From IMG/VR virus record IMGVR_UViG_3300035102_000071: a stretch of 34,274 bases of DNA, one strand, 5' to 3'. This document shows positions 1,445 to 34,274 of the stretch, in pieces. Below the pieces are notes generated by a model, which worked only from the letters and a program-made list of their open reading frames with translations, ran no database searches and had not been told where the DNA came from. Each line of letters opens with the position of its first letter. Position 1 is the first letter of the stretch. This stretch comes from a virus. The position numbers were made by a program, and so were the translations under genes.

Positions 1445-1677
1445 GCATATCGAGACGACAATTCTTGAAGGGTCTGGCCGCCCTTGCGGCTTCCGCCGCT
1501 ATCCCGGTTCCCGCCTTCTCCTGCCGACGCGCTCCATATGTTACCGTAGGTGGCGGTACGGTTAGCTATATCGGCCACTGTCCAGGTGGATTCATCGGTT
1601 CAAAGGTCGTTCATTCTGTTGGCCCGTGGGACGCGGTTAAACGTGCCATCTACGACGCCGACAAGGTGCAGGGGTAA
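1441..1677 (+). CDS. Small exported protein with a twin-arginine (Tat) signal peptide
   Basis: The N-terminus MSISRRQFLKGLAALAASAAIPVPAFSC matches the S-R-R-x-F-L-K Tat consensus, followed by a hydrophobic h-region. A Cys follows the AFS motif. Confidence 0.65.
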   Translation: MSISRRQFLKGLAALAASAAIPVPAFSCRRAPYVTVGGGTVSYIGHCPGGFIGSKVVHSVGPWDAVKRAIYDADKVQG

Positions 1678-1680
1678 GCC

Positions 1681-1965
1681 ATGTCCAGAGAAGCAATTGA
1701 ATATCCGCGCTGTGTGAATGGTCGGGAATCACTCTCCGACAACTATTTCATCCTGTCGCTCGGCAAGATCGTGTGTGGGTACTGGATAGGATTCACAATG
1801 CAGCACGTACTTGTGGGTGCTGGACTTGCTGAATGGAAGGAAGGCGACAAGGGCGTCACTCCTACCACGAAAGGGAAAAAGGTATTGTATGACCTGACAT
1901 TCGGCGGCGGGAGTCAGTATTTCCTTCTCCCGACCGGGCCGCACCCCACCCGTGAATGTCATTAA
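1681..1965 (+). CDS. Hypothetical protein (94 aa)
   Basis: The ATG lies 3 nt after the upstream stop, on the same strand as its neighbours. I recognised no motif. Confidence 0.5.
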   Translation: MSREAIEYPRCVNGRESLSDNYFILSLGKIVCGYWIGFTMQHVLVGAGLAEWKEGDKGVTPTTKGKKVLYDLTFGGGSQYFLLPTGPHPTRECH

Positions 1966-1988
1966 ATCTGTAAGAGGCGTATCATGGA
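1966..1988 (+). repeat. 23-nt gene-boundary repeat, copy A (ATCTGTAAGAGGCGTATCATGGA)
   Basis: It is identical to 2985-3007. It contains AAGAGG plus the ATG of the downstream ORF. Confidence 0.9.
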
Positions 1989-2109
1989 TGATTTTCACCG
2001 AGAAATGCGACGCATTCAGTGGAGGCATTTAAGACGTTTGATTTTCAAGGCCATCATTCTGTGCGGTTCAATCGCGCTGCTACTAAAACTGGAAAACTAC
2101 ATTCGATAA
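1984..2109 (+). CDS. Small membrane protein (41 aa)
   Basis: The ATG is embedded in the conserved AAGAGGCGTATCATG initiation motif. Translation is MDDFHREMRRIQWRHLRRLIFKAIILCGSIALLLKLENYIR, with one hydrophobic span. Confidence 0.4.
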   Translation: MDDFHREMRRIQWRHLRRLIFKAIILCGSIALLLKLENYIR

Positions 2110-2152
2110 CCGAGAATAGGGAATCAGCAGTTCAACGTTAAGGAGAAATACA

Positions 2153-2422
2153 GTGGAAAAATTCGACTTCAAAGAAGCCTGCAAGGGATGTACTATAGCT
2201 TCTGAAACAGACTGCACATTGCAATCTACTGAGTTCGGTTGCGTCCGAGAAACGCACGAAGCTGCCACCGAAATGCTAACCTTCTTCCATGGTCGGTGCG
2301 GAGCGGACGATTCGTCGATTATTGAAATCATCTGTAACGGCGAACACTCCGATTTGTACGCCCAGCACGTTGCAGATTTGTTCACTCGGCTTGAAAAGGC
2401 GGTCGGTTTTGCAAAGGGGTAA
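2153..2422 (+). CDS. Cys-rich hypothetical protein (89 aa, GTG start)
   Basis: AAGGAGA at 2140-2146 lies 6 nt before GTG 2153. The 3' end overlaps the possible TTG start of the HicA-like ORF. Confidence 0.5.
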   Translation: MEKFDFKEACKGCTIASETDCTLQSTEFGCVRETHEAATEMLTFFHGRCGADDSSIIEIICNGEHSDLYAQHVADLFTRLEKAVGFAKG

Positions 2423-2621
2423 GGTAAGCAAAAAGAAAATTGTGAAGCTGCTCAAGAAGAACGGCTACGCCTTGGACCGCAAGGCCAAGCATGAGATTTG
2501 GGTGAAGTGCGGGCATGAAATAACCGTTTCCCATGGGCAGACCGTGTCGGGAGCTATGGCCGCGCATATTCGCTCTCAAGTCAGAAACCCAGTCTACAAA
2601 AGCGAGGCATACAATGGATAA
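2409..2621 (+). CDS. HicA/YcfA-like small protein (possible mRNA-interferase toxin); start uncertain (TTG 2409 or GTG 2442)
   Basis: The peptide KKKIVKLLKKNGYALDRKAKHEIWVKCGHEITVSHGQTVSGAMAAHIRSQV follows the HicA pattern (k.l.k.L.k.Gf...r..gsH..w......tv.H......g....I..q). There is no ATG and no strong RBS. Confidence 0.45.
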   Translation: MQRGKVSKKKIVKLLKKNGYALDRKAKHEIWVKCGHEITVSHGQTVSGAMAAHIRSQVRNPVYKSEAYNG

Positions 2622-2736
2622 ATGTAACTGTGCCAAATGTGTGAAGAGGCGCAGGGCATCAGTCGTGAAGTGGAAGAACTCCGTAAAGATTCTCAAAGAC
2701 AATAAATTTATATTTGACCTGTGCATGGCTGCATAG
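2614..2736 (+). CDS. Small hypothetical protein (40 aa, CxC..C)
   Basis: ATG 2614 overlaps the end of the HicA-like ORF. Translation starts MDKCNCAKCVKRRRASVVKWKNSVK. Support is weak. Confidence 0.3.
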   Translation: MDKCNCAKCVKRRRASVVKWKNSVKILKDNKFIFDLCMAA

Positions 2737-2743
2737 GTCGCAC

Positions 2744-2764
2744 TATCCGCAAGAGGCGTACATG
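2744..2764 (+). repeat. Degenerate third copy of the gene-boundary motif (TATCCGCAAGAGGCGTACATG)
   Basis: It shares AAGAGGCGTA-CATG and the upstream TATC-G with copies A and B, and ends in ATG 2762. Confidence 0.7.
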
Positions 2765-2980
2765 CTTGAACTGAGCAAGACATTCAGCATCAAGAAAACC
2801 ACGTTCGACATTGGTGCGGCTATCTCAACGTCGTGGCCCCAGCTCTGGTACGTGACCTGCAAACGTGGTCATAAATCGTGGCTACCGCTCGCTATCAAGG
2901 TCACCCAGGAGAGGGACGGAAAGGGCACGCTTGTGTTTTTGATAATCGGTCCGCTCGGTCTGCATGTCGGGTGGATGTAA
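2762..2980 (+). CDS. Hypothetical protein (72 aa)
   Basis: ATG 2762 is preceded by the conserved AAGAGG motif. Confidence 0.45.
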   Translation: MLELSKTFSIKKTTFDIGAAISTSWPQLWYVTCKRGHKSWLPLAIKVTQERDGKGTLVFLIIGPLGLHVGWM

Positions 2981-2984
2981 CCCT

Positions 2985-3007
2985 ATCTGTAAGAGGCGTA
3001 TCATGGA
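2985..3007 (+). repeat. 23-nt gene-boundary repeat, copy B
   Basis: It is identical to 1966-1988 and carries ATG 3003. Confidence 0.9.
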
Positions 3008-27113: not shown

Positions 27114-28100
27114 CTACCCCCTGAATCCACGGTTGCCGTTGTTGAGCATGGCCAGCCGCGCCTCGGAATCGCGCGCCCTGGTCCTGGCCGCGCGTTGGTC
27201 CTTGGTCACCCACGACCAATCGCAATCAACGATGGGCACCATGTTTGACCCGGCGTGAATGGTGAAATCTATCTCCTGGCCCTGCGGGTTGGGAAACGAC
27301 ACCGGCGTCTTGCACTTGGTGATGCGCATGTAGTTGGCGTGCCCGTCGAAAAAGATGGACAGACCGAGGCGGGCCTTTTCCAGCGTGAACTCGGCCCCGC
27401 GGGCCAGGTCAGCACCGGACTTCTTTTGCAGGCACACGATAGCCACACCGCCCTGGAGCGCATTGTGGATCTGCTGAATCTGCTGGCCCACCTTCCAGAA
27501 CTCGTCGAGATTCTCCATGTAGTCGATGACGTTCAGGCCGTCGGGGTCGACCACCAGGTGAAAATCACGGGTGCGGGAATACGGTTCGAGACCGCTGCTC
27601 CACAGGTCTTGGCGCTGGTCGATGGCCATGAGACGGCCCCGCAACTCAGCCGGGTGCATCTCGGAGTTAAACAGGCGGACGCGATCATGCGCCCCGCCGA
27701 ACGCGGCCAGGTTGCGATAGATCGTGTTCAGCACGAACGCCGTTTTGCCCGCGTTCGTCTCCCCGGCCACGATGATGACGTTGCCGGGAGAAATGATGAC
27801 TTTCTCATTCAATCCGAGCGGGAGCCAAAGCGGATACGGTTCAACCTGTGCAGTCTGCCAGTCCATGGGAACCAAGTCGGTATCGACACGGTGATACCAG
27901 CCGTTGCGGTGTTCATCACGCTCGATCAGTTTTTGCCGCACCAACTCGTCAAGTAGCTGGTCGCGCAGTCGGACATTCTCAACGCCCGTCTCCTTCGAGA
28001 ACACATAGGCAGAGAACTTACCTCGGGCTCGGCGCACCCACCGCTTGGCCAGAGCGATTGATTGGGCTAGGTCTTCGCCGGAGAACTCAGGCAACCGCAT
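27114..28100 (-). CDS. DnaB-like / RecA-fold replicative helicase ATPase
   Basis: Walker A VAGETNAGKT, Walker B-like GLNVIDYM, and VAIVCLQKK. The N-terminal roughly 100 aa look winged-helix-like. Strong GAGGAGG RBS. Confidence 0.8.
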   Translation of the reverse strand: MRLPEFSGEDLAQSIALAKRWVRRARGKFSAYVFSKETGVENVRLRDQLLDELVRQKLIERDEHRNGWYHRVDTDLVPMDWQTAQVEPYPLWLPLGLNEKVIISPGNVIIVAGETNAGKTAFVLNTIYRNLAAFGGAHDRVRLFNSEMHPAELRGRLMAIDQRQDLWSSGLEPYSRTRDFHLVVDPDGLNVIDYMENLDEFWKVGQQIQQIHNALQGGVAIVCLQKKSGADLARGAEFTLEKARLGLSIFFDGHANYMRITKCKTPVSFPNPQGQEIDFTIHAGSNMVPIVDCDWSWVTKDQRAARTRARDSEARLAMLNNGNRGFRG

Positions 28101-28428
28101 ACTGCTCCTCCTCGGTGTCGAATCGCTTGGACAACCTGTCCAGGTAGCACCGCGCCTGGTCCTCGCTCAGAGCGACCTCCGGGAGGACGGCCAATCCGAG
28201 GGCAACATCCCAGTCAAAGCCGGACTCCGCGAAAATATTTGGCAACGTCACCGGCTGTCCGATCTCGTACAGGGCACGCATGGCCTCGAAAATAGGCCAT
28301 GCCTCGCCGGTGGAGATGAATGCCAGACCGTCGGCCTCGGGAATCAAGTGTGGGTTTTGCCACAGGCCGGACAACGCCCACATGCGCAGCTCGGACAAGC
28401 TGATTGCGTCGATGATGCTACGCCTCAT
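28087..28428 (-). CDS. Helical protein resembling a DnaB N-terminal domain (113 aa)
   Basis: I trimmed it to ATG 28428, because the 159-aa track form overlaps the organiser gene by 149 nt. Its 3' end overlaps the helicase start by 14 nt. The domain call is tentative. Confidence 0.5.
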   Translation of the reverse strand: MRRSIIDAISLSELRMWALSGLWQNPHLIPEADGLAFISTGEAWPIFEAMRALYEIGQPVTLPNIFAESGFDWDVALGLAVLPEVALSEDQARCYLDRLSKRFDTEEEQYAVA

Positions 28429-29230
28429 ACTTGCCCTCGATGACCTTGTTGAAATTCGTGGGCCGTACCAGCCACTCCAGGTCGGCCTGGAAAGGGGCCT
28501 TGCCTTCGCACCCGTCGACCAGCCCCATGAGAAACGGGCATCCACGGACGTACTCGAAGAACCCACGCCACCAATCCAGGCTTTGCCGTTTCTGCTCCGA
28601 CTTCCATCTTGCCCTCAGCAATTTCTCTCGATTGGCATCCCAAACGCGTACCTTTCTGAGCTCCGGCAAGACCTCGTGATAAAGTGCGATGATTTCCTGG
28701 TGAGGGCAGCGAGGAGGTCCGGCAGACGAAGTCTGTGGACAAGTACCCGTTAGGGTACTCTCTTCTTCTTCCGGAGAGGGAGAGGGAGAGGGAGAGGGAG
28801 AGGGAGAGGGAGAGGGGGCATTGCTACAATGTGCTTGTGGCATGCTCGTAGCATGCTCGGAGCATTTTTTAGCTTTGCCCCAACGTGCTTGAGCAGCCTT
28901 CTTAGCTTTGGCTGAACGCTCTTCTGCATGGGCCGCGTAGGCGTTGTGTTCTGCCCACCCGTGAATGGACAAGACGCCGTTTTCATCTTCATCGAGCAAC
29001 CCGATAGAGACAAGTATCTGCACAAATTCGTGGGGATCATCTTGCCAGTTGGCATCAAGGGCTATGTCCTCGGCGTCCATGCCGTGCAAAACGCCTTCCG
29101 GCCGCGTCTCGGCAACCATGAGCATCAGGTCAATGAACGCGAGAACTCCTTCTGCCCCAAGCCTGAGTTGCAACTTTTTCCGCTTCCTGTGGTCGCGGAA
29201 TGACGTTTTGATGCGAATATCATAGTTCAC
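28418..29230 (-). CDS. Replisome organiser / replication initiation protein
   Basis: The N-terminus (LRLGAEGVLAFIDLMLMVAE) and the C-terminus (CPHQEIIALYHEVLPEL...WWRGFFEYVRGCPFLMG...FQADLEWLVRPTNFNKVIEGKYE) are typical of phage replication organisers. GTG start with a GGAGG RBS. Confidence 0.75.
   Translation of the reverse strand: MNYDIRIKTSFRDHRKRKKLQLRLGAEGVLAFIDLMLMVAETRPEGVLHGMDAEDIALDANWQDDPHEFVQILVSIGLLDEDENGVLSIHGWAEHNAYAAHAEERSAKAKKAAQARWGKAKKCSEHATSMPQAHCSNAPSPSPSPSPSPSPSPEEEESTLTGTCPQTSSAGPPRCPHQEIIALYHEVLPELRKVRVWDANREKLLRARWKSEQKRQSLDWWRGFFEYVRGCPFLMGLVDGCEGKAPFQADLEWLVRPTNFNKVIEGKYEA
28774..28815. repeat. Hexanucleotide microsatellite (GAGAGG)x7 inside the organiser gene
   Basis: Seven perfect units. 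On the minus strand they encode a (Pro-Ser)n linker followed by EEEE. Confidence 0.95.
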
Positions 29231-29394
29231 AGATTATGCCTCCACCCCACGTTTCCGATTCGCGAACCACGAACAGACCTTGACCACCCACCCGGGCACC
29301 ACCACCTAGCGACACCTTCAAGGCCGAACAACTCTTCAAGCTCGACCATAAATTCGTCGCTTGAGGCGTCTGAAAAGTGCTTGAACCATCTCAT
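29227..29394 (-). pseudogene. Truncated N-terminal fragment of a second replisome-organiser-like gene
   Basis: MRWFKHFSDASSDEFMVELEELFGLEGVARWW is a typical organiser N-terminus. It then runs into direct-repeat copy 1 in a different frame and ends after 55 codons. Confidence 0.45.
29249..29302. repeat. 54-bp direct repeat, copy 1
   Basis: 29249-29292 is identical to 29840-29883 (44 nt). The next 10 nt carry 2 mismatches. Confidence 0.9.
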
Positions 29395-29396
29395 GC

Positions 29397-29498
29397 TTAA
29401 TTGCCTTTAGGTGTATCCCAATACGCGCTTTTGCACTTAGGACAAATTTTTGGCAAAGAACTATCTTTTTCTATTGCCCATTCATCAAGACTTTTCAT
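29397..29498 (-). CDS. Possible 33-aa zinc-ribbon peptide
   Basis: MKSLDEWAIEKDSSLPKICPKCKSAYWDTPKGN. It overlaps the end of the 93-aa ORF and lies in an AT-rich context. Confidence 0.35.
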   Translation of the reverse strand: MKSLDEWAIEKDSSLPKICPKCKSAYWDTPKGN

Positions 29499-29766
29499 TT
29501 TTTATAACCTCCATTAATTCTTTTGCTTCTTTACGCAACGAGGTAGCAATATTATATCCGTCACAGAACGGAGTTTTCATTTCAGAAATTGACTTGACAA
29601 AATATTCAAGATTATAAATGCGGTCTTCAAGTTTTTCGATCTTTTCATCATATCCTGATTCAACTTTTGCGATAACATCTTTAATCGGCAGGTCTGCTAA
29701 TTCTTGTTCTTCAAATGAATGGAACGACTCAGCGCAACTGCTTCGACCACAAATTTTACAACTCAT
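29485..29766 (-). CDS. Hypothetical protein in the low-GC cassette (93 aa, N-terminal CxxC...C, coiled coil)
   Basis: ATG 29766. Its composition differs clearly from the rest of the genome. Confidence 0.6.
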   Translation of the reverse strand: MSCKICGRSSCAESFHSFEEQELADLPIKDVIAKVESGYDEKIEKLEDRIYNLEYFVKSISEMKTPFCDGYNIATSLRKEAKELMEVIKNEKS

Positions 29767-29818
29767 AACCAACCCCTACTCCTGCTCTTTGGATTGTTCG
29801 TACTTGGCGGCGACAGAT

Positions 29819-29989
29819 TCAAGCATCTTCCACCACCAAACGTTTCCGATTCGCGAACCACGAACAGACCTTGACCACCCACCACGGCACCACGGCATAC
29901 CGCGCCTTCGTGCTGGCGATATCGCGCCGGAGCATGTGCGCATCGTACTTGGCTTCGAGCCAGCGGCGTTTGTAGTGCGGACGAGGCAT
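29819..29989 (-). CDS. Possible 56-aa protein
   Basis: MPRPHYKRRWLEAKYDAHMLRRDIASTKARYAVVPWWVVKVCSWFANRKRLVVEDA. The ATG is 4 nt after the HTH gene stop. The 3' end lies inside direct-repeat copy 2. Confidence 0.4.
   Translation of the reverse strand: MPRPHYKRRWLEAKYDAHMLRRDIASTKARYAVVPWWVVKVCSWFANRKRLVVEDA
29840..29893. repeat. 54-bp direct repeat, copy 2
   Basis: See copy 1. Confidence 0.9.
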
Positions 29990-29993
29990 AAGG

Positions 29994-30236
29994 TTAGTCT
30001 TGGTAATTATTCTTTGTGCATTCAGCGTTGTCGATCATCCACTTGATATGTTCCTGGATGACCTCAGACGGGACGCCAAGGCACTTGTAAGCGGCGATCT
30101 TATCCGCCCGAGGGAAGGCGTCGCCACGCAAATGAAAATTGATAGCCGTTGACGATATGCCTAATTCCTTTGCGGCCTTTGGTGCCGTCCAACGGTTGGC
30201 CTTAAACCATGCCTTGAGTGGTGTTTCGTTTTTCAT
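29994..30236 (-). CDS. Cro/CI-type helix-turn-helix DNA-binding protein (80 aa)
   Basis: The HTH TAPKAAKELGISSTAINFHLRG is present. It is the first gene of the leftward arm. I prefer ATG 30236 over the TTG at 30242. No SD is visible. Confidence 0.7.
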   Translation of the reverse strand: MKNETPLKAWFKANRWTAPKAAKELGISSTAINFHLRGDAFPRADKIAAYKCLGVPSEVIQEHIKWMIDNAECTKNNYQD

Positions 30237-30303
30237 AGCCAAAAGCTACCATGACAAGTGTAGGGAGGCAAGGAAAACTTTATCGAATTGATTAAAAAAC
30301 TTA

Positions 30304-31255: not shown

Positions 31256-32080
31256 ATGAACCCCGGCATCTATACCGACATGACCAACGAGGCATACCAC
31301 GCCGAGCGGTCGGCAGTGTCCAACTCGGGCATTAGCAAGTTGGTCCAGAGCCCGGCCCACTTCCGCGCGTACCTGGATGAAGGGTTTTCCGAAACCCCAG
31401 CGTTGATCTTCGGCCGCATCGCTCATGAGGCCATCCTTGAGCCGGATCGGTTCGCCTATGCCGTAGCCCCGCAGGTAGACAAGCGTACAAAGTCTGGGAA
31501 GGCCGAGTGGGCGGACTTTGAAGCTGAAAACGCGGACAAGCACATCCTGACCAGCGACGACGAGAAGGCCATTCTGAGGATGCGCGACAACGTGTATGCC
31601 CACCCTGCCGCCAAGGCAGCTCTAACAACATCCAAGGGCCGCGCCGAGGTGTCCGTGTTCGGATACCAGGGAGATCAGTCTGGAGAACTCTGCAAGTGCC
31701 GTCCCGACTTCTGGCGCGACGACAACATCATCGTTGACCTCAAGACCACGAACGACGCAGGGCCGCACGAGTTCAACCGCTCCGTGTTCAAGTATGGCTA
31801 CCACCGGCAAGCGGCCTTCTATCTCAACCTATGCAGCCGCGCCAAGGCCGAGAAGCAAGAGGCGTTCATCTTCATCTGCGTGGAGAAGACGACGCCCTAC
31901 GCTGTGGCCGTCTACATGGCTGACGCAGAAATGATCGAATATGGGCGCTGGCAGTACGAACGCGCCCTGCTCACCCTGGCCGAGTGCAAAATCAACAATT
32001 ACTGGCCTGGCTACTCGGAGAAGATCGAAACTATTTCTCTGCCCGCCTGGGCAAAGAAGCAAATGGAGGACGCAGCATGA
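31256..32080 (+). CDS. PD-(D/E)XK exonuclease (RecE/YqaJ-like recombination exonuclease)
   Basis: YTDMTNEAYHA...SNSGISKL N-terminus and the IVDLKT catalytic motif. ATGA coupling to the recT gene. Confidence 0.8.
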   Translation: MNPGIYTDMTNEAYHAERSAVSNSGISKLVQSPAHFRAYLDEGFSETPALIFGRIAHEAILEPDRFAYAVAPQVDKRTKSGKAEWADFEAENADKHILTSDDEKAILRMRDNVYAHPAAKAALTTSKGRAEVSVFGYQGDQSGELCKCRPDFWRDDNIIVDLKTTNDAGPHEFNRSVFKYGYHRQAAFYLNLCSRAKAEKQEAFIFICVEKTTPYAVAVYMADAEMIEYGRWQYERALLTLAECKINNYWPGYSEKIETISLPAWAKKQMEDAA

Positions 32081-32961
32081 CTAATGTACCCGCCAATCAT
32101 TCGGATACCATCGCCGGGTTGCTGGCCAAGCAGGCCCCGGCAATCGCGAGGGCAATCGGTGGGCTAAGCCCTGCCGAGCAGCAAAAGCGTGCCGAGCGAT
32201 TCACCCGCGTTGCCCTGACAACCATCAGGAACAATGAAGGATTGATGAAGTGCAACCCACAAAGCGTCATGGGGGCGCTCATGCACTGCGCGAGCTTTGA
32301 CATGGAACCGGACGCACGCGGTCTTGTGTGGCTCGTCCCGTACAAGGGCGAGGCGCAGTTCCAGCTCGGATACAAGGGGATGATTGAACTGGCTGTCCGG
32401 TCGGGCGCGGTCAAGTCAATCCGGGCCGAGATCGTCTATGAGTCCGAAGTCGAGGCTGGGATGTTCGAGTACCATGGGGGTACCGAGCAGACCATCAGGC
32501 ACGACATCGATTTTTTAAAGCCCGAACTCCGTACCGGGAAAGTGGTCGCGGCCTACGCTGTGGCCGACATGTCCAACGGGACAAAAGCACTGGCCGTCAT
32601 TGACAGAGCTCACATCGAGAAGAGGCGCAAAGCTAGCCAGAGCGCAAGCAGCAGCTATTCCCCGTGGCAGAAGTGGACCGAGGAAATGATCAAAAAGACG
32701 GCCATCAAAGAACTGTGCCGCACTCTCCCGCAGTCCATCGAAAAGCTCCACCGCGCCATTGCCCTGGACAATGAATACGAGGCCAGAGTCATCGCGTCCA
32801 AAGATGCACCAGGCCAGAGCCTCGACGTAGAAACCCTCAACGCCAAGATCATGGGCGAGCAGAAGGACGAGCCCATCTGCCCCATCACCGAGGCACCGGT
32901 CAACGTGGACGACTGCGTGGACTGCGAAGAGGCAAGATCCTGCGCCAGCAAGGCCGCATAG
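32077..32961 (+). CDS. recT: RecT-family single-strand annealing protein
   Basis: LVPYKGEAQFQLGYKGMIELAVRSGAVKSIRAEIVYE is the RecT core. I chose ATG 32077 (GGAGG 7 nt upstream) rather than the track start at 31984. Confidence 0.85.
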   Translation: MTNVPANHSDTIAGLLAKQAPAIARAIGGLSPAEQQKRAERFTRVALTTIRNNEGLMKCNPQSVMGALMHCASFDMEPDARGLVWLVPYKGEAQFQLGYKGMIELAVRSGAVKSIRAEIVYESEVEAGMFEYHGGTEQTIRHDIDFLKPELRTGKVVAAYAVADMSNGTKALAVIDRAHIEKRRKASQSASSSYSPWQKWTEEMIKKTAIKELCRTLPQSIEKLHRAIALDNEYEARVIASKDAPGQSLDVETLNAKIMGEQKDEPICPITEAPVNVDDCVDCEEARSCASKAA

Positions 32962-33902: not shown

Positions 33903-34274
33903 ATGAAGGCAATACTCGACGGAAGCCATCTGGTTATTGACGGCGAGCGTTTTGATTTGGGCGGCTCTCTGTACCTGCGCGGCACCGGCATCACCTCGCT
34001 GCCCGACAACCTGACCGTGGGCGGCTATCTGGACCTGGAAGGCACCGGCATCACCTCGCTGCCCGACAACCTGACCGTGGGCGGCTATCTGGACCTGCGC
34101 GGCACCGGCATCACCTCGCTGCCCGACAACCTGACCGTGGGCGGCTATCTGGACCTGGAAGGCACCGGCATCACCTCGCTGCCCGACAACCTGACCGTGG
34201 GCGGCTCTCTGGACCTGGAAGGCACCGGCATCACCTCGCTGCCCGACAACCTGACCGTGGGCGGCTCTCTGGAC
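33903..34274 (+). CDS. LRR-like tandem-repeat protein, 5' part (continues in frame at the window start)
   Basis: GGAG (33891-33894) lies 8 nt before ATG 33903. MKAILDGSHLVIDGERFDLGG is followed by 20-aa units. There is no stop before the window end. Confidence 0.8.
   Translation, partial: MKAILDGSHLVIDGERFDLGGSLYLRGTGITSLPDNLTVGGYLDLEGTGITSLPDNLTVGGYLDLRGTGITSLPDNLTVGGYLDLEGTGITSLPDNLTVGGSLDLEGTGITSLPDNLTVGGSLD
33961..34274 (+). repeat. 60-bp tandem repeat array, part B (5.2 units)
   Basis: Units start at 33961, 34021, 34081, 34141, 34201 and 34261. They are identical outside three codons. Confidence 0.95.

Follow-up and report, generated by a model that had tools for sequence, protein, structure and literature searches.

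In the Hendrix model, illegitimate recombination between temperate phages produces mosaic genomes with 'novel joints', as reportedly seen in HK97/HK022 and mycobacteriophage comparisons. Among lambdoid phages, O-type initiators (lambda O) combine an exchangeable, origin-specific N-terminal domain with a conserved C-terminal domain. Mosaic novel joints are discussed in PMC2327257, which states that RecET-type systems recombine homologies of 5-13 bp and that Red recombines diverged sequences; on short-homology recombination by RecET/Red, it cites Shiraishi et al. 2002.

The locus described here lies in a viral contig of 34,274 nt (IMG/VR record IMGVR_UViG_3300035102_000071; 'the window' is this whole stretch). 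It is ordinary, if unusually well documented, phage genome mosaicism of a kind already known, and is probably the scar of an out-of-register, microhomology-mediated recombination between phages that were swapping origin-specificity modules. A preliminary description had presented the low-GC DNA between two direct repeats (the patch) as a recently acquired three-gene accessory cassette; the patch is not a self-contained mobile or anti-defence cassette.

Anatomy of the locus

All genes of this region are on the minus strand, among them the three small ORFs named in the preliminary description (ORF93, ORF33 and a 55-codon ORF). A RecT/DUF3799 gene pair lies 2 kb from the locus. The features are:

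31256-32961, plus strand: DUF3799 (PDDEXK-like domain) and RecT genes (Pfam, 1.8e-35 and 3.5e-47)
29994-30242, minus strand: Cro-like HTH gene (82 aa) that opens the minus-strand early operon, given for context
29819-29989, minus strand: ORF56, of the small ORF54/56/59 family, with its last 6 codons (LVVEDA*) made by joint J1
29840-29893: upstream repeat copy a_U (exact core 29840-29883)
29827-29839, minus strand: joint J1 (...AAACGT / TT / GGTGGTGGAAG...), from the ORF5x end to codons 31-33 of a foreign organiser stub
29776-29829, minus strand: segment c, stub codons 33-49 and stop (KMLESVAAKYEQSKEQE*)
29485-29766, minus strand: ORF93, the only intact gene of the patch
29397-29498, minus strand: ORF33, a chimera of the ORF74 N-terminus and the ORF46 C-terminus
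29431-29447, minus strand: deletion joint in ORF33, at the 17-nt repeat ATTTGTCCTAAGTGCAA (ICPKC), located by alignment and overlapping BLAST segments
29299-29394, minus strand: segment b, codons 1-32 of a low-GC organiser (MRWFKH...GVARWW)
29227-29394, minus strand: hybrid 55-codon ORF, made of segment b and the repeat in a shifted frame
29299-29306, minus strand: joint J2 (...CGCTAGGTGGTGG / TGCCCGGG...), from stub codon 32 to the interior of an L011-type ORF54
29249-29302: downstream repeat copy a_D (exact core 29249-29292)
29234-29305, minus strand: vestigial ORF54-type 3' end (VVVPGWVVKVCSWFANRKRGVEA*), with an in-frame TAG before it
28418-29230, minus strand: replication organiser/initiator (270 aa), with an N-domain of the MNYDIRIK type

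The repeat pair was confirmed at its reported extent: the cores are identical (44/44) and 54 nt (29249-29302 against 29840-29893) match with 2 mismatches, similarity running on, more loosely, to 73 nt at 88%. The exact core had 2 matches in the window (0 expected, 100 shuffles). Setting aside the 60-nt tandem array (terminal) and the 37-nt pair (near 2-3 kb), the window has no other long dispersed direct repeat. A correction concerns its nature: the repeat is not a clean target duplication; microhomology at the recombination joints accounts for the outermost ~10 nt at either end. The low GC content noted between the copies was likewise found (0.31-0.36 over 29400-29700 in 100-nt windows, compared with 0.55-0.60 in the whole genome and most flanks); it may be a trait of the early or origin-proximal module and does not prove that the host was foreign.

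The repeat is the 3' end of an ORF54/56-family gene, which directly precedes the replication organiser in cassette-free relatives; the ORF56 homologues P0002 (59 aa) and P0003 (54 aa) both end in ...NRKRGVEA. The HTH gene had weak matches to HTH/repressor families (phrog_35, 5e-4) and 84% amino acid identity to its homologue in contig L022. Both patch ends lie on the motif GGTGGTGG (stub codons 31-32), beside the GGTGG motifs that flank the repeat; the motif has 5 occurrences in 34 kb, 2 of them being the joints. The microhomology at J1 is GGTGG, and in a three-way alignment with L011 and L012 two nucleotides (TT), untemplated or mutated, were explained by neither parent. At J2 it amounts to 5-7 nt (GGTGG or GGTGGTG). 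The two halves of the 49-codon organiser stub stand in circularly permuted order at opposite ends of the patch.

In the hybrid ORF, the first 32 codons (MRWFKHFSDASSDEFMVELEELFGLEGVARWW) are an organiser N-terminus; in L022, the gene for an intact 245-aa organiser starts with a stretch of 95% nucleotide identity to segment b. The TGA of this ORF overlaps the GTG of the organiser (GTGA), an arrangement that suggests translational coupling of the two. The vestigial ORF54 end keeps the native GGAGG ribosome-binding site of the organiser, with the same reading in P0002/P0003 and L011. An intact three-gene cassette, as first described, is not what the patch contains: the organiser fragment is a half stub and ORF33 a two-gene deletion chimera, which leaves ORF93 alone intact. 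ORF74 and ORF46 are both intact zinc-ribbon genes in L022, where the 17-nt repeat occurs twice, about 340 nt apart; because ORF33 is their deletion fusion, the patch is decaying.

Relatives and the origin of the patch

Relatives were found through protein-based look-ups; L011 comes from ERZ28660125, L010 from SRR23823812, L022 from SRR26469900 and L012 from SRR28382711. A near-identity search of the locus against 50,697 GenBank phages gave no match, and exact and degenerate repeat patterns had none in viral, genome and metagenome contig collections. The same arrangement was present in the window and in three genome-length contigs (L007-L009; three JGI samples), all of about 34.2-34.4 kb, and the four were identical over 2.1 kb around the locus except for the copy number of a hexanucleotide. 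Misassembly, which the preliminary description had named as fatal to its own reading, is therefore scarcely credible here, whether two strains had been collapsed or mis-joined: an exact 44-nt repeat can mislead de Bruijn assemblers, but all four contigs keep the arrangement, each joint is a unique sequence that the reads must have contained, and the anatomy of the joints is that of real illegitimate recombination.

Two contigs, L010 and L011, are cassette-free, with an ORF54/59 that ends in ...NRKRGVEA* and leads directly into the organiser start. The junction of ...NRKRGVEA, GGAGG and GTG is the natural state in these contigs and in P0002/P0003, and the downstream repeat copy of the window reads in the same way (a 54-codon ORF, then GGAGG and GTG), exactly as had been predicted for the product of a deletion. 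The cassette-free junction that was to be looked for thus exists in L010/L011, but no cassette-free version of the window phage's own backbone was found; the two contigs are short (587 and 1047 nt), and whose backbone the window shares is not visible from them. The predicted ORF56 deletion product, in two variants, was absent from ~15 billion proteins by exact look-up. Of the proposed excision through the repeats, the prerequisites hold, since the repeats are long enough for RecT-type deletion and the product matches natural genes, but loss was not seen. Patch loss through the 44-nt repeats is plausible.

Contigs of the L012 and L022 families match the patch itself at 93-98.6% nucleotide identity. 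In the L012 family, segments b and c are contiguous as a 49-57-aa stub, followed by ORF95 and ORF74; window positions 29399 to 29299 correspond to L012 237-337, and 29837 to 29431 to L012 330-736. The patch is circularly permuted with respect to L012, so both of its ends fall at one site in the stub. The gene order of the L022 family is a truncated ORF93, ORF74, ORF46 and the intact 245-aa organiser that begins with segment b, with matches to the window at 29648 to 29431 (98.6%), 29447 to 29299 (95%) and 28769 to 28301 (95%). In both backgrounds the patch DNA occurs without a flanking repeat; the repeats are therefore a by-product of this one recombination, not the termini of a mobile element. 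What stands of the recently acquired accessory cassette is that the DNA is extra relative to L010/L011, foreign in composition and recently shared with other phage backgrounds.

Identity to L022 changes abruptly at the boundaries along the locus (81%, then 98.6%/95%, then 95%), and identity to L011 is 81% upstream and 93% downstream. The left flank of the window (the HTH gene and the 5' part of ORF56) is only ~81-83% identical to L022, L010 and L011 alike; no relative is closer to it than another, which calls for one or more additional exchanges. Within the organiser, the N-domain has 72% identity to a Desulfovibrionaceae prophage, and the C-domain, from about 28769 downward, has 95% identity to L022, whose N-domain is unrelated. 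Homology among all lineages restarts at this one interdomain point (about 28769), which fits N-domain swapping. Family matches of the organiser were to phrog_5810 (1.3e-31), phrog_10469 (7e-23) and phrog_345 (1.9e-22; 'O-like'), and Pfam matches were sub-threshold only (Phage_rep_org_N, Lin1244_N); by sequence, the protein belongs to the O-like/DnaD-like phage organiser families.

The locus thus carries abrupt changes of identity with different relatives on either side, joints at microhomologies, and truncated or chimeric remnants, as mosaic junctions do. From this decomposition, the joints and the cassette-free and donor-type relatives, the order of events may be reconstructed as follows. One lineage would have carried HTH - ORF5x - [stub remnant - ORF93 - ORF74 - ORF46] - low-GC organiser, and the other, of the L011 type, ORF54 followed directly by a high-GC organiser. 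The exchanged part would comprise the small upstream genes and the organiser N-terminal domain, with the scar at the exchange boundary. At J2, a GGTGG(TG) match would have linked the low-GC organiser, at its codon 32 (AGG TGG TGG), with a site inside ORF54. The last ~23 ORF54 codons would thereby have arrived a second time, carried in with the high-GC organiser, and the resident ORF56 would have remained upstream of the now functionless low-GC genes. The low-GC patch would be bracketed by direct repeats because this second ORF54 end came in while ORF56 stayed. J1 would have been made likewise at GGTGGTGG, between the ORF5x end and codon 33 of an older organiser stub, and the patch would since have decayed, ORF74 and ORF46 being fused into ORF33 by deletion across the 17-nt repeat. 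Catalysis probably came from the RecT/PDDEXK-type genes (RecT/DUF3799) that the phage itself encodes, which could also delete the patch through the 44-nt repeats. No contig with the postulated parent, HTH-ORF56-a|c-ORF93-ORF74-ORF46-organiser, was found.

Two parents are favoured by allele differences between the repeat copies and by unequal flank identity to L011. The 5' part of a_U (29884-29921) is an allele that differs from L010/L011, and ORF56 outside the 44-nt core is 73% identical to L011; the a_D region has 1 mismatch to L011 between 29303 and 29157 (~147 nt, including the first ~75 nt of the organiser). At the 5' edge, one copy reads CCGTGG, closer to CCGAGG of L022, and the other has the L010/L011-type CCCGGG. 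Yet the 44-nt core is the same in both copies, although immediately beyond it ORF56 and L011 diverge by ~27%; if divergence were uniform, this would have a P of about 1e-6, so a two-parent model needs strong conservation of the core or later gene conversion.

Core identity would follow directly from duplication of a single template, as in an insertion with target duplication into the single backbone of an L011-like phage, a reading close to the recently acquired insert of the preliminary description. Replicative template switching would have copied a circular or tandem donor (c-ORF93-ORF33-b) through one complete turn. Replication would have departed from the template at the GGTGG that follows the repeat and returned to it at the GGTGG that precedes the repeat, so that ~55 nt of target were copied twice. 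The patch is indeed exactly one circular permutation of the b-c-d unit, all four ends are at GGTGG motifs, and the downstream flank is near-identical to the cassette-free L011. We nevertheless regard such an insertion as unlikely: allele-type substitutions separate the 5' edges of the two copies, identity to L011 is only 81% upstream compared with ~99% downstream (147 nt), no circular or tandem donor was seen, and the donor must already have carried two stub copies. Moreover, ORF33 was already, or later became, a deletion product, and the insert is therefore not a functional unit.

An extended form, in which small gene units move as circles or tandem copies with RecT-assisted template switching at a Chi-like hotspot and, separately, the ORF93 family is under selection, is in our estimation doubtful. 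Its starting point is that the patch is an exact circular permutation whose four ends all lie at GGTGG(TGG) motifs; circles or tandem copies could constitute a recombinase-free 'cassette' mechanism that leaves long target duplications. For Haemophilus, bioRxiv 10.1101/2020.08.13.249359 quotes the Chi-like motifs GNTGGTGG and G(G/C)TGGAGG; GGTGGTGG and GGTGGAGG fit these, which may not be the motifs of the host. The hotspot was set aside, the motif counts being too small for a test.

Candidate functions of the patch and the repeat

In ORF93, a CCCH zinc knuckle (MSCKICGRSSCAESFHS) at the N-terminus precedes a helical hairpin, and the AlphaFold2 model, which shows both, is confident (pLDDT 85.5). 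Compared with L012, dN/dS was about 0.44 (6 synonymous and 12 non-synonymous changes). The first 38 codons are conserved, and the gene occurs in several phage backgrounds; genes of its family are normal constituents of the early/replication regions of phages with 35-64% GC. Selection might be maintaining ORF93 as a functional representative of a hitherto undescribed family of early phage proteins with a CCCH zinc knuckle. It had no informative Pfam, PHROGs or PADLOC match, no PDB sequence match, and no fold match in BFVD or PDB. A PADLOC match to a Type I specificity subunit (E = 0.0027) covers the coiled-coil stretch, and the JGI label 'archaellum component FlaC' was taken as a coiled-coil artefact; both were rejected.

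The low GC, the extra DNA relative to L010/L011 and the intact ORF93 with its conserved start in several backgrounds would be accounted for if the patch were an autonomous accessory cassette (moron-like or att-flanked) with a gene for exclusion or anti-defence, passing from phage to phage as one piece and leaving through the repeats on its flanks. Such a cassette is improbable, as the patch DNA in L012/L022 is not flanked by the repeat, there are no inverted repeats around the locus, and no integrase, recombinase or transposase was found among the ORFs scanned (a subset of the window ORFs). No terminator was found on the coding strand, and promoter-like sites occur only inside the AT-rich ORF93. 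Two of the three 'genes' are debris, and elsewhere the ORF93 family consists of normal early/replication-region genes. The suggested exclusion or anti-defence function found no support: searches of Pfam, PHROGs, PADLOC (whose models cover defence, not anti-defence, families), PDB sequences, and BFVD and PDB folds gave no significant match to defence models, protein families or structures.

The lambda oop antisense RNA occupies a position comparable to that of the repeat before the organiser. By that analogy, the repeat might work as a cis element, whether as operator, as iteron or as an oop-like antisense RNA across the end of the gene that precedes the organiser, with two copies kept for regulation; we hold this to be very improbable. 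The core is invariant, synonymous sites included, in both window copies, L010 and L011, with diverging flanks, and contains a palindrome, TTCGCGAA, found only in the two copies. Against this, relatives carry one copy, and L010/L011 share a longer near-identical stretch (about 125 nt), so that recent exchange explains the identity at least as well as constraint. As a repeated operator, the palindrome was rejected, being limited to the two copies and not significant in number (at least 2 in 12/100 shuffles). An oop-like antisense RNA or structured element was likewise rejected: Rfam gave nothing for the repeat, the fold z-scores of the two strands (-1.0 to +1.1) were not significant, and no terminator was present.

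Comparison with known systems

The locus opens no new biological question. Its value is as a clean natural example of mosaicism: the cassette-free state and both donor-type arrangements can be recovered alongside the product, every base of the joints is readable, and the patch also shows a subsequent deletion. It would illustrate how origin-specificity modules are exchanged at the interdomain linker of the organiser, and how an out-of-register exchange can leave repeat-flanked debris that resembles an acquired cassette. For annotation it carries a warning: low-GC, repeat-bracketed small ORFs beside replication genes need not be accessory or anti-defence genes.

Direct repeats bracket the segment, as in transposon target duplications, att cores and integron cassettes. 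Unlike in these, the repeat is 54 nt of target coding sequence without terminal inverted repeats. The shared DNA in L012/L022 has different ends and no flanking duplication, which sets it apart from transposable elements. In contrast to att/attC cassettes, no integrase domain was found in the scanned ORFs, which included some but not all of the small ones, and the L012 stub is contiguous, with no repeat copy between b and c. Like morons, the patch lies between genes that are adjacent in L010/L011 and deviates in composition; unlike morons, it has no promoter/terminator pair of its own, its genes are tightly packed or overlapping, it is mostly replication-module debris, and the same genes are regular early-operon members in other phages.

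The window phage resembles RecET/Red systems in its RecT and PDDEXK-like genes, its joints with 5-7 nt of microhomology and a deletion at one 17-nt repeat; at this locus the enzymes are putative agents. Its organiser is like lambda O-type initiators in sharing a C-domain with a phage whose N-domain is unrelated; it has no significant Pfam assignment, and its domain roles and origin binding are putative. The closest likeness is to the novel joints of the Hendrix model, with a sharp change of identity, microhomology of a few bases, a module swap in the same gene order and leftover fragments. The window differs from typical novel joints in that the exchange is out of register, with about 55 nt of the flanking gene duplicated, that cassette-free and donor-type arrangements were both recovered, and that both joints use one GGTGGTGG site.

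Gene order and the direct repeat

All genes at the locus are on the minus strand, in the following order of transcription:

29994-30242, minus strand: Cro-like HTH gene
29819-29989, minus strand: ORF56
29485-29766, minus strand: ORF93
29397-29498, minus strand: ORF33
29227-29394, minus strand: 55-codon ORF
28418-29230, minus strand: 270-aa organiser/initiator (phrog_5810, 1e-31)
27114-28100, minus strand: DnaB-like helicase (separated from the organiser by a small gene)

The preliminary description of a direct repeat enclosing low-GC DNA was confirmed: positions 29249-29292 equal 29840-29883 (44 nt), allowing two mismatches lengthens the match to 54 nt, and a looser alignment covers 73 nt at 88% identity. 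Two matches were present in the window, against none in 100 dinucleotide-preserving shuffles. GC content was 0.31-0.36 across 29400-29700 (100-nt windows), compared with 0.55-0.60 in most of the flanks and the whole genome. No other long dispersed direct repeat occurs in the 34 kb, a terminal tandem array of 60-nt units and a pair of 37 nt near 2-3 kb excepted.

The genome (~34.3 kb) is podovirus-like, with a T7-type connector and scaffold, an Sf6-type small terminase and a lambdoid-style early region. Its ends (1-271 and 33958-34274) carry one and the same 60-nt array (4.5 and 5.3 copies, 94-95% identity), each unit encoding 20 LRR-like amino acids (...LDLEGTGITSLPDNLTVGG...). The genome is probably complete, either circular or with terminal redundancy, and the assembler broke it inside a repeat-protein gene. 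The 37-nt pair (1952-1988 and 2971-3007, 84%) has the context of a ribosome-binding site plus ATG. It encloses a stretch of lower GC (49-50%, 1500-3000), which contains a HicA-toxin-like ORF (2289-2621; Pfam 9e-5, below cut-off) and may represent a further moron or mosaic patch.

Content of the low-GC patch

Close relatives of ORF93 were found in two other contig families, L022 and L012, each in about ten sequencing runs. The L022 order is HTH, ORF58, truncated ORF93, ORF74, ORF46 and an intact 245-aa organiser, which begins MKWFKHFSNASSDEFMVELEELFGLEGVARWWKLLEAVSA... and has a C-domain with 95% nucleotide identity to that of the window. The L012 order is a CopG/NikA-like gene, a 49-57-aa organiser stub (MKWFKH...GVARWW-KLLESVSAKYEQFKEQE*), ORF95, ORF74, an HTH gene and a third organiser type. 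The patch aligned with these families as follows:

29837 to 29431, minus strand: L012 330-736, 93% (stub codons 33-49, ORF93, ORF74 start)
29648 to 29431, minus strand: L022, 98.6%
29447 to 29299, minus strand: L022 2654-2802, 95% (ORF46 end and first 32 organiser codons)
29399 to 29299, minus strand: L012 237-337, 95%

From these alignments, ORF33 is a chimera of the ORF74 N-terminus and the ORF46 C-terminus, joined across a 17-nt repeat (ATTTGTCCTAAGTGCAA, 29431-29447), and the "truncated organiser-like fragment" of the preliminary description corresponds, by the same comparison, to codons 1-32 of an L022-type organiser. Stub codons 33-49 lie at the opposite end of the patch, immediately upstream of ORF93, and the patch is a circular permutation of the unit found in L012. 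Of the proposed three-ORF cassette, only ORF93 is intact as a gene.

Differences in the 32-codon stub (window 29299-29394; L012 242-337; L022 2707-2802) were mostly synonymous (dN/dS 0.03-0.12 on 5-6 substitutions); the stub is a mere fragment in two of the three lineages. Either the sequences would have diverged while within intact genes, or the stub itself has been retained, perhaps to serve as a leader for translational coupling.

The family of ORF93 is small and unannotated; its members are phage proteins of 55-130 aa (P0127-P0151; L031-L039) with invariant M1, C3, C6, C11, S14, F15, H16 and Q21 (MSCxICGRxxCTxSFHSxEEQE), followed by helices. The N-terminal motif is CCCH, and the AlphaFold2 model (pLDDT 85.5) is a knuckle with a helical hairpin. 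On viral contigs of 35 to 64% GC, family members occupy early or replication regions, and ORF93 looks like an ordinary early gene. Its dN/dS against L012 (~0.44, 18 substitutions) is weak evidence for constraint. Sequence-family and structure searches found no counterpart in Pfam, PHROG, PADLOC, PDB or BFVD, and the suggested exclusion or anti-defence function gained no support.

Joints and the exchange zone

The repeat is the 3' end of a gene of the ORF5x family, small genes preceding the organiser. ORF56 relatives formed only three 90%-identity clusters in 5.8 billion proteins (the window's own, and homologues of 59 and 54 aa), and both homologues end ...VVPGWVVKVCSWFANRKRGVEA, which is also how the downstream repeat copy reads. 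On the contigs of these two homologues, L010 and L011, the ORF5x gene directly abuts the organiser start with nothing intervening (L011: ...CGGAAACGTGGGGTGGAGGCATAATCTGTGAAC... then VNSDIRIKTSFRDHRKRKKLQ..., the latter 42/44 identical to the window's organiser). The predicted cassette-free junction therefore exists in nature, in these relatives but not in the phage's own backbone.

At joint J2 (minus strand, ...GAAGGTGTCGCTAGGTGGTGG|TGCCCGGGTGGGTGGTCAAGG...), stub codons 30-32 (AGG TGG TGG) are fused to L011-type ...GCGGTGGTGCCCGGG... via GGTGG(TG). At joint J1 (...AATCGGAAACGT-TT-GGTGGTGGAAGATGCTTGAA...), the ORF5x gene end (L011: AAACGTGGGGTGGAGGCATAA) is fused to the stub at GGTGGTGG, the same site as J2, with two bases (TT) attributable to neither parent. 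Two of the five occurrences of GGTGGTGG in the window are J1 and J2. The apparent 73-nt repeat thus consists of a target truly duplicated over ~55 nt, with microhomology flanking it on both sides.

From J2 to 29157, window and L011 differ once in ~147 nt; past 29157, third-codon-position differences emerge (~80% identity). Upstream, ORF56 shares 73% identity with L011 once the 44-nt core is left out. The core is invariant in both window copies, L010 and L011 (probability ~1e-6 under uniform divergence). In L022, unrelated DNA of ~180 nt (1921-2100) breaks the ORF5x gene within the repeat segment (window position ~29874) and also shortens ORF93 to 62 aa; this break makes a third joint, independent of the others, within one ~70-nt zone. 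Organiser homology among all lineages restarts at one point, ~28769, directly past the (SP)n/acidic linker. The identity shifts, the L022 joint and the common restart mark the ORF5x end and organiser start as a recurrent exchange zone, the exchanged unit being the organiser N-domain with small upstream genes.

The interdomain (SP)n linker is encoded by a (GGAGAG)7.3 microsatellite (28773-28816), whose copy number is the sole difference among four aligned contigs of this phage (full array in the window and L009, one unit fewer in L007, two fewer in L008). A prophage organiser from a Desulfovibrionaceae MAG (L050 8001-8888, CAXXDH010000003.1) matches this organiser in its N-domain (72% identity) and SPSPSP linker, yet differs in its C-domain, which shows that the two domains move independently. 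This N-domain identity, with which the 56% GC is consistent, suggests Desulfovibrionaceae as the host family.

Origin and possible loss of the patch

Out-of-register recombination at GGTGG microhomologies probably joined related phages of shared gene order and different origin-specificity modules. The resident ORF56 and the low-GC module residue would remain upstream, and the incoming high-GC organiser would carry along the terminal ~23 codons of the ORF54 belonging to it, thereby duplicating the ~55-nt segment. Duplication of the repeat segment from a single template would fit the mismatch-free 44-nt core and the exactness of the patch permutation, yet it is unlikely, for the copies differ in allele at the 5' edge: CCG TGG upstream, nearer CCG AGG of L022, and CCC GGG downstream, as in L010/L011. 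This difference favours two parents.

A transposon or att-type element was rejected: inverted repeats are absent, the ORFs scanned contained neither an integrase nor a transposase, and the same DNA occurs elsewhere without the repeat. A regulatory RNA or operator within the repeat was also rejected, as was misassembly, four contigs of the phage having the same arrangement.

Among the phage's genes are those for RecT and a DUF3799 (PDDEXK-like) protein, and systems of this type can recombine homologies that are diverged or very short (PMC2327257). The ICPKC deletion in ORF33 is a repeat-mediated loss already within the patch; deletion via the 44-nt repeats, restoring an L011-like junction, is therefore plausible. 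The deleted state was not seen in the window and three genome-length contigs (three JGI samples), identical over 2.1 kb except for GGAGAG copy number, and the predicted 54-aa deletion product was absent among ~15 billion proteins. The reading as an acquired, losable accessory cassette is supported in part: relatives have the cassette-free junction and loss is plausible, but the deletion is unseen.

No new kind of element is involved: the locus is probably a well-resolved case of mosaicism, a known process, produced where a replication module ends by microhomology recombination out of register.
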